Shown in pieces: positions 50,883-51,638 of a DNA stretch of 64,000 nucleotides (positions are counted from its first letter, which is position 1; every line of letters begins with the position of its first letter). Where the stretch lies: contig CAIMPC010000007.1 in the NCBI GenBank assembly GCA_903843285.1, forward strand, positions 92,730 through 156,729, written 5' to 3'. The DNA comes from Candidatus Omnitrophota bacterium. GTDB lineage: Bacteria > Omnitrophota > Gorgyraeia > 2-01-FULL-45-10. The notes beneath the pieces were generated by a model, which was not told the DNA's origin, ran no database searches, and saw only the letters and a list, made by a program, of their open reading frames with translations. The position numbers and the translations under genes were made by a program.

Positions 50883-50906
50883 GGTGTTATTTAACGGAGG
50901 TGTATT

Positions 50907-51638
50907 ATCAAAACGGTAGGAATCATTCCGGCTCGATATGAATCTTCAAGGTTTCCGGGCAAACCCATTATAGAACTCTGCGGTAAGCCAATGATAATCT
51001 GGGTGGCGGAAGTCACTGCTAAGGCTCTCGGAAAAGAAAACACCTATGTCGCTACCGATGACAAGCGTATATCGGACACGGTAAGAAGGAGCGGCTTTAA
51101 GTCCATTTTGACATCAGAGAAGGCAATGACCGGCACCGATCGAATAGCGGAGGCGGCGCGAACAATAGACGCCGATATTTATATTAATATTCAGGGTGAC
51201 GAACCTTTGCTTGATCCGGATGATATAAAAAAGGCAGTGGCCGCAAAGAAGAAATTTCCGAAAGCAGTCATTAACTGCATGTGCGTCCTTGGAAGTGACG
51301 AGGACCCATCCAATCCTAACATACCGAAGGTCATTACGACTGAAGATGAACGCCTTGTTTACATATCGCGTCTGCCGGTTCCGGGGTCGAAGTCTATAGA
51401 TAATTATCCTAAGACATTTTGGAGGCAAGTCTGCATTTATGCATTCTCGGGGGACGAGTTAAACGCGTTTAGCGGGTTTGGACGTAAGGGCAATCTGGAG
51501 CGCATTGAAGATATAGAAATATTGCGCTTCCTTGAATTGAGTATCCCAGTTCGAATGGTGAAAGTCACCAGCGGCTCAAAGGCAGTCGATGTGCCCGAGG
51601 ATGTCCGTGCGGTAGAGACTTTACTGAGGGCCAGATGA
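50907..51638 (+). CDS. kdsB: 3-deoxy-manno-octulosonate cytidylyltransferase (KdsB) family CMP-sugar synthetase; non-AUG start or 5' lesion
   Basis: In-frame translation upstream of the first ATG (50991) reads [31 protein letters not shown], which is the conserved KdsB N-terminus. GDEPLL motif downstream. Only ATT (50904) or ATC (50907) is available after a GGAGG RBS (50896-50900); the frame is closed by TAA at 50892. Confidence 0.6.
   Translation: [243 protein letters not shown]

Follow-up and report, generated by a model that had tools for sequence, protein, structure and literature searches.

A KdsB/KpsU-like gene without a canonical start codon

We examined a 64,000-nucleotide (nt) stretch of DNA from an uncultured Candidatus Omnitrophota bacterium (GenBank assembly GCA_903843285.1, contig CAIMPC010000007.1, positions 92,730 to 156,729 of the forward strand). 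This whole stretch is called the window here, and positions are counted from its first letter. The gene under study encodes a cytidylyltransferase that resembles KdsB and KpsU, lies between an aldolase-type gene and a phosphatase gene, and has no ATG, GTG or TTG in front of its conserved N-terminus. The comparisons described below indicate that the gene is functional and that it most probably starts at an AUC codon (Table 1).

The KdsB-like frame is closed upstream by an in-frame TAA (50892-50894, forward strand), after which the sequence reads CGG AGG TGT ATT ATC AAA ACG GTA GGA ATC ATT CCG GCT CGA. None of the three canonical start codons occurs in this frame between that TAA and the ATG at 50991. 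An earlier sequence-only reading of this DNA had placed the TAA at 50892, a GGAGG at 50896-50900, an ATT at 50904, an ATC at 50907 and the first in-frame ATG at 50991, and all of these positions held when the sequence was read again. Translation of 50895-51638 also returned the N-terminus that it had given. The gene span that it had assigned, 50895-51638, was right at the stop end but not at the start: the frame opens at 50895, directly behind the TAA, but we place the coding sequence at 50907-51638.

A run of 32 codons without ATG, GTG or TTG is not rare by itself, and three other open reading frames (ORFs) in the window are equally long open upstream. The motif GGAGGTG was found four times in the window, against 4.5 expected. 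What goes beyond chance is the encoded content of the stretch and its conservation, not the length of the open run or the count of GGAGGTG. The ATG at 50991 has no Shine-Dalgarno (SD) sequence upstream, the preceding sequence being tagaactctgcggtaagcca, and the methionine in this column is nearly invariant among homologs as an internal residue.

Profile searches placed the protein in the KdsB/KpsU group from its very N-terminus. Pfam PF02348 (CTP_transf_3) matched with 129 bits against a cutoff of 22.6 (E = 3e-37) over profile positions 1-210 of 217, with position 1 on the valine encoded at 50916 when the protein was translated from 50904. NCBIfam PRK13368 matched with 269.1 bits against a cutoff of 255 over positions 2-239 of 243, with position 2 on the lysine encoded at 50910. 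The best match of solved structure was KpsU of E. coli (PDB 1GQ9; 144 bits), in which residue 2 aligned with residue 2. The kdsB equivalog models stayed below their cutoffs (TIGR00466, 130.9 against 155.2; PRK05450.1-1, 144.3 against 281), and therefore we call the protein KdsB/KpsU-like and assign no sugar substrate. The label 'KdsB-like' of the sequence-only reading thus stands for the subfamily, but not for the kdsB equivalog. The matches support a KdsB/KpsU-type protein at subfamily level only, not an equivalog of the KdsB of lipopolysaccharide synthesis.

With numbering from the ATC as residue 1, P8, R10, S14, R15 and K19 are present, all of them encoded upstream of ATG 50991. In Aquifex KdsB, P8 and R10 touch the cytosine and ribose, and R10, T14, R15 and K19 bind the triphosphate (PMC3149649). 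The columns of this cytidine triphosphate (CTP)-binding loop were conserved in every full-length homolog of a 24-sequence alignment. GTDR, QGDEP and the C-terminal EDIE...LR were invariant columns in the same alignment, and they also align with KpsU. A product that began at Met29 would lack the CTP loop, which bears out the earlier view that a start at ATG 50991 would remove an essential N-terminus.

Table 1. Features of the KdsB/KpsU-like gene and its immediate neighbours in the window.
Feature	Position	Strand	Basis or remark
In-frame TAA closing the KdsB-like frame	50892-50894	+	Sequence; L005 has TGA at the same position
Extended SD sequence GGAGGTG	50896-50902	+	GGAGG core 50896-50900; core ends 6 nt before ATC
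ATT, near-cognate codon, not conserved	50904-50906	+	3 nt after GGAGG
ATC, proposed initiation codon	50907-50909	+	Aligned with Met1 of homologs; conserved in the clade
Full coding sequence, KdsB/KpsU-like cytidylyltransferase, 243 amino acids (aa) and TGA stop (51636-51638)	50907-51638	+	Profiles; ratio of non-synonymous to synonymous rates (dN/dS)
CTP-binding loop P8-A-R10-Y-E-S-S14-R15-F-P-G-K19-P20	50928-50966	+	Translation; wholly upstream of the first ATG
Internal ATG (Met29), start chosen by gene callers, giving 215 aa (P0001)	50991-50993	+	ORF list
Upstream HMGL-like aldolase and MptE-like gene, 587 aa	49119-50882	+	ORF list; stop TAA 50880-50882
Downstream HAD_2-family phosphatase gene	51635-52312	+	Pfam HAD_2 1.1e-12; ATGA overlap with the TGA of the KdsB-like gene

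Conservation of the start region in sister lineages

Protein search turned up five further clusters in which gene callers had cut the protein at the same internal Met (P0002, 83% identity; P0015, 71%; P0031, 70%; P0043, 70%; P0104, 67%). The clade contigs for these clusters were fetched, plus L170 for P0121. The clade comparison consists of seven sequences in six lineages (the window, L005, L006, L170, L007, L008 and L009) with 67-100% protein identity. The clade is small, with only six clusters at 90% identity in a collection of 5.8 billion proteins. A neighbour-joining tree of 60 relatives, built without support values, grouped the seven sequences as a single clade.

A canonical start before the family N-terminus is absent from all seven sequences. 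All seven have the same arrangement: a strong SD sequence, six nucleotides after GGAGG, ATC or ATT, and then AAA (Table 2). The SD sequence is GGAGGTG in six of the seven and AAAGGAGGT in L009, and the last four bases of the spacer vary across the clade. The codon at 50907 is ATC in 6/7 and ATT only in L007, and the codon at the 50904 position reads ATT, ATT, GAT, GAT, AAC, GGC and AAA. Because the codon before the ATC varies freely among the lineages, the ATC at 50907 appears to be the conserved start; on this alignment, an AT-pyrimidine codon is held while the adjacent non-coding bases are randomised. The ATC also aligns with Met1 of full-length homologs of 60-67% identity, which start MK.VGIIPAR, and with Met1 of KpsU. 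The ortholog comparison that the sequence-only reading had proposed thus came out in favour of the upstream start, with the clade keeping both ATC or ATT at the Met1 position and the CTP loop.

Table 2. Start region of the KdsB/KpsU-like gene in the clade.
Sequence	SD and spacer	Start and next two codons
Window	GGAGGTGTATT	ATC AAA ACG
L005	GGAGGTGCATT	ATC AAA ACG
L006 / L170	GGAGGTGCGAT	ATC AAA GCG
L007	GGAGGTGCAAC	ATT AAA ACA
L008	GGAGGTGCGGC	ATC AAA ACA
L009	AAAGGAGGTTTAAA	ATC AAA ACT

Synonymous sites are saturated between most lineages, with a proportion of synonymous differences (pS) of 0.55-0.87. The closest informative pair, the window and L005, had a synonymous divergence (dS) of 0.64 and a whole-gene dN/dS of 0.14, and in the N-terminal part a proportion of non-synonymous differences (pN) of 0.03 against a pS of 0.29. 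Whole-gene dN/dS was 0.05-0.15 across the clade, the closest two lineages included. In codons 2-28, the 27 codons from the AT-pyrimidine codon (ATY) to the internal ATG, pN was 0.02-0.14 against a pS of 0.19-0.84. This is strong purifying selection on codons 2-28, which indicates that the N-terminal segment is translated and that the gene is functional.

Four assemblies (L001-L004), from different samples and made with different assemblers, match the window exactly over the 151 nt around the start. The truncated protein of 215 aa, P0001, is recorded on 17-19 contigs.

More distant homologs served as a contrast. Scans of Genome Taxonomy Database (GTDB) species genomes and of Joint Genome Institute (JGI) metagenomes gave at least 160 more distant loci of 38-66% identity, and the N-terminus could be recognised in 147 of those listed. 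Among these listed matches, 116 of 147 have a canonical start exactly at the codon equivalent to Met1 (102 ATG, 12 TTG and 2 GTG) and 29 have one 1-6 codons upstream of it. In the other two, L070 from Sulfurovaceae and L082 from Campylobacteraceae, an in-frame fusion joins the KdsB-like domain to the aldolase/MptE-like protein encoded upstream. A homolog without a canonical start was not found among the 147 matches listed (0/147), and no further members of the clade were among them. On this comparison, the non-canonical start is derived and limited to a single small clade. The distribution is consistent with a single change from ATG to ATC that was then retained, followed by one transition from ATC to ATT.

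Two truncated database proteins, P0141 (61%) and P0144 (58%), were considered as extra non-canonical cases and rejected, since both loci carry an ordinary ATG at the codon equivalent to Met1 and the entries are miscalls of the gene callers. P0141 (217 aa, JGI) corresponds to L171 4917-5654 and P0144 (220 aa, Logan) to L175 3587-4333, in each case with the ATG 28 codons upstream. Truncated public KdsB-like entries are therefore not all due to non-canonical starts.

SD strength, spacing and coupling to the upstream gene

The duplex between the SD sequence before 50907 and the anti-SD sequence, which was assumed to be the canonical one, has an energy of -13.4 kcal/mol. This value is tied third among the 58 gene starts of the window, the median of which is -6.85, and in all seven clade sequences the energy is -13.2 to -13.4 kcal/mol. 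The closest relatives with canonical starts have weaker SD sequences of -3 to -10 kcal/mol, a contrast that is partly confounded by taxonomy. The sole other start-associated GGAGGTG in the window precedes a weak TTG start at 27112. This motif lies within 27100-27114, before the TTG of a 374-aa ORF (27112-28236). This fits the idea that, in this genome, the strongest SD sequences go with weak start codons.

The ATC is 6 nt past the GGAGG core, a spacing suited to initiation, and the ATT at 50904 is only 3 nt past it. A distance of 3 nt from GGAGG, or 1 nt from GGAGGTG, is shorter than the usual SD spacing. The second codon is AAA in every clade sequence. In the window the stop codon of the upstream gene precedes the ATC by 24 nt, whereas in L006, L170, L007 and L008 it lies 10 nt past the first base of the start codon. 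With the end of the upstream gene no more than about 25 nt away from the start, termination-reinitiation coupling is plausible.

No significant RNA structure was found around the start: the consensus energy was -3.2 kcal/mol, and the fold of the window sequence had a z of 0.25 relative to shuffled sequences. In 50895-50930 and in the aligned sequences of L005-L009 and L170, CGGAG of the SD sequence can pair with UUCCG of codons 7-8 and thereby enclose the start codon. The UUCCG arm encodes Ile-Pro of the IPAR motif, and both arms are conserved for other reasons. This pairing is probably not a regulatory hairpin.

Weighing the possible explanations

It is established that the gene has no canonical start, that its AUY codon and SD sequence are conserved, that its N-terminus is under purifying selection and that the sequence is not an assembly error. 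On the comparative evidence we regard it as highly probable that 50907-51638 is a functional gene of 243 aa that starts at AUC 50907. From the same evidence we infer initiation at the AUC, a contribution of coupling and reduced expression. The initiator tRNA, which carries formylmethionine (fMet), would decode the AUC, so that the protein would begin with Met-Lys-Thr-Val. The extended SD sequence GGAGGUG, with its GGAGG core 6 nt ahead of the AUC, would offset the weak codon, as would the AAA in second position, and translational coupling to the aldolase/MptE-like gene probably adds to initiation at the AUC. Because the start is AUC, expression is probably lower than it would be from AUG. An ancestral ATG would have changed to ATC once, at the base of the small clade, and would then have been kept. 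The encoded enzyme is predicted to activate a 3-deoxy-ulosonic acid sugar with CTP.

Several points weigh against a start at the AUC. In E. coli, AUC is a very poor start codon, which initiates at 1-2% of the level of AUG and gives an N-terminal Met (bioRxiv 10.1101/063800). The ATT directly upstream of the ATC in the window and in L005 could share in initiation. In two Campylobacterota genomes the fusion makes the aldolase and the KdsB-like protein in a 1:1 ratio, which fits poorly with very low expression of the KdsB-like enzyme. The tree that makes the clade monophyletic lacks support values, and the anti-SD sequence assumed for the duplex energies may not be that of the host.

The sequence-only reading had named a rare AUU or AUC start, a sequencing error at an ATG and a recent inactivation as explanations, and of these only the AUC start stood. 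A main start at AUU 50904, giving a protein of 244 aa, would use the best-documented non-canonical start of bacteria (infC, pcnB), and ATT is indeed in frame one codon before the ATC in the window and L005. We consider this improbable: the other five clade sequences have GAT, GAT, AAC, GGC and AAA at that position while 50907 is ATC or ATT in 7/7, Met1 of the homologs aligns with 50907 instead, and the ATT, set off from GGAGG by 3 nt and from GGAGGTG by 1 nt, is too close to the SD sequence. The ATT at 50904 would be at most a minor alternative start. A misread ATG at 50907 would require only one wrong base, yet the 151-nt start region came out identical when four other samples were assembled, with different assemblers, and ATC or ATT recurs in five more diverged lineages, from different samples and down to 67% identity. 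This leaves the explanation with a negligible chance. A pseudogene, or a protein made only in the N-terminally truncated form from ATG 50991, would account for the 215-aa product in the gene calls and for a conserved N-terminus that no canonical start precedes. It is nevertheless very improbable, since purifying selection on codons 2-28 is comparable to that on the rest of the gene, also in the closest pair (the window and L005), and all six lineages, between which synonymous sites are saturated, keep an intact frame together with the SD sequence and the ATY; moreover, ATG 50991 has no SD sequence and the CTP loop would be lost. Recent inactivation is likewise at odds with a dN/dS of 0.05-0.15 and with selection that spans codons 2-28.

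Translation could also begin out of frame at GTG 50900, which is present in 6/7 clade sequences, and reach the KdsB-like frame by a +1 frameshift, or it could continue from the upstream gene by read-through or frameshifting, as the shared frame of the two genes in the window and their natural fusion in L070 and L082 might suggest. We give this hardly any credence. In L009, GTG, ATG and TTG are absent from all frames of the stretch that separates the SD sequence from the ATC. GTG 50900 lacks its own SD sequence at a distance that would work, and there is no evident slippery site. Read-through would have to pass two TAA codons (50880 and 50892) in the window. Because a 1-nt indel puts the two genes of L005 in different frames, and those of L006, L170, L007 and L008 overlap out of frame, there is no conserved frame relation that a fusion could use. 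Gene fission from a fused ancestor, which would have left a non-AUG junction, was also considered and set aside as less parsimonious, the nearest relatives having separate genes with ATG or GTG starts. A different matter is whether AUC initiation, if real, is only tolerated as a nearly neutral relic. This is a variant of a functional AUC start rather than a competitor, so its chance is not to be added to the others, and we consider it possible but would not favour it. The operon is tightly packed, with the upstream stop at -24 to +13 nt from the start; compensation by a strong SD sequence is visible, and together with coupling it may yield enough enzyme that there is no pressure to revert; and the clade is small, with its six 90%-identity clusters. 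On the other hand, a single C-to-G change would restore ATG, yet none of the six lineages (0/6) has reverted at saturated divergence, and the only change seen is from ATC to ATT. This lack of reversion suggests a constraint on the weak start, although with six lineages it is statistically weak evidence against neutrality. That the AUC is a selected throttle or coupling device seems doubtful to us; on this reading AUC alone would be almost inert, and synthesis of the enzyme would depend on ribosomes arriving from translation of the upstream gene and on the extended SD sequence.

The neighbouring genes

The upstream gene matched Pfam HMGL-like (1.3e-24) and MptE-like (7.9e-06, below the cutoff). 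The same aldolase/MptE-like gene precedes the KdsB-like gene in L005, L170, L171, L175 and L176, and the HAD_2 neighbour is present at every related locus that is long enough to show it. In the window (49119-53838) and the related loci, the order of the module is HMGL-like/MptE-like, KdsB-like, HAD_2 and a protein of about 509-650 aa with weak TIGR04326 or Glyphos_transf matches. In the window, the ORF after the HAD gene can be read from ATG 52222, giving 538 aa and an overlap of 91 nt with the HAD gene; public calls use ATG 52309, which makes the protein 509 aa long and leaves only an ATGA overlap with the HAD stop. The fused aldolase/MptE-like and KdsB-like ORFs of Campylobacterota lie at 1366-3030 onward in L070 and at 1405-3030 onward in L082. 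Gene content and order suggest that the module is a pyruvate-aldolase route to a 3-deoxy-ulosonic acid activated with cytidine monophosphate (CMP), distinct from the KdsA/KdsC/KdsB route. A literature search on a module of HMGL-like, KdsB-like and HAD genes found nothing relevant.

All long ORFs of the window are on the forward strand and form one 64-kb glycan-biosynthesis island. The island includes at least six genes for B12-binding radical SAM proteins (among them those at 7188, 12301, 47596, 54824 and 58167) and more for plain radical SAM proteins. It also carries two genes for polysaccharide deacetylases and several for methyltransferases, besides those for GT2 and GT9 glycosyltransferases, an MBOAT acyltransferase and an MsbA-like ABC exporter. 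Neither tRNA or rRNA genes nor Rfam matches were found in the 64-kb window, and neither infC nor the 16S rRNA gene lies within it. The contigs with the KdsB-like gene come from metagenomes of stratified boreal lakes, e.g. the Finnish lake Alinen Mustajarvi.

No other gene in the window had an upstream gap filled by homologous coding sequence. An open stretch of 33 codons before 59884 was tried as a further non-canonical start and rejected, because it precedes a normal SD sequence, an ATG and a signal anchor. Other GGAGG-N-ATH and GGAGG-N-CTG sites in the window were rejected as well, because they lie inside longer ORFs.

Precedents and implications

The protein resembles KpsU and KdsB of E. 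coli in its length, its CTP loop (IPARYxSSRxPGKP), the GTDR and QGDEP motifs and its PF02348 domain, and it aligns with KpsU through to the C-terminus. Unlike those genes, it starts at AUC rather than AUG, and it adjoins an HMGL-like gene of the pyruvate-aldolase type and a HAD_2 phosphatase gene instead of KdsA and KdsC, which means that its sugar may be one other than Kdo (3-deoxy-D-manno-octulosonate).

As a start, the AUC is a further example of a known rare kind, represented by the AUU of infC and the ATC of Deinococcus dnaA, and it implies no new mechanism. With infC and pcnB of E. coli it shares a near-cognate AUH codon that is conserved among orthologs, together with the predicted reading by initiator tRNA and reduced initiation. 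Those genes use AUU (infC AUA in some species), whereas the window gene has AUC; and infC is autoregulated through the discrimination exerted by initiation factor 3 (IF3), whereas for the window gene, which encodes an enzyme of sugar-nucleotide synthesis, no link to IF3 is known. The closest parallel in codon is Deinococcus dnaA, for which an ATC start conserved across species was demonstrated by N-terminal proteomics (PMC2830850). There, too, annotation had missed the start at first, and it came to notice through a conserved N-terminus upstream of any canonical start. The gene and the lineage are different, and the dnaA start is experimentally confirmed, whereas the start in the window is inferred from sequence comparison. 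In S. aureus, cvfC1, ccpN, citZ and infC have conserved AUU or AUA starts with extended SD sequences, and reporters gave about 10% of the AUG level (PMC13009471). These share with the window gene a GGAGGTG-type extended complementarity between SD and anti-SD sequences, but they are AUU or AUA starts that were mapped by retapamulin ribosome profiling, whereas the window gene has an AUC, is in an operon and is probably coupled.

The practical consequence concerns annotation. Gene callers shorten the window gene and those of five sister lineages to 215-218 aa (P0001, P0002, P0015, P0031, P0043 and P0104), and the miscalled start drops the CTP-binding loop, so that the protein looks defective in databases. 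The gene also adds a conserved AUC start that sequence comparison supports well, a type with few documented natural cases, Deinococcus dnaA among them, and it shows the expected signature of a compensating strong SD sequence and tight operon coupling. It may serve as a simple system in which to test the rescue of near-cognate starts by SD strength and coupling, and it changes no principle. In our view its interest, both for annotation and for work on near-cognate initiation, is moderate. If the AUC were a selected device after all, its coupling would tie two enzymes together as a stand-in for the gene fusion of Campylobacterota, and the output of CMP-sugar could respond to the level of IF3 or to the growth state, as infC does.

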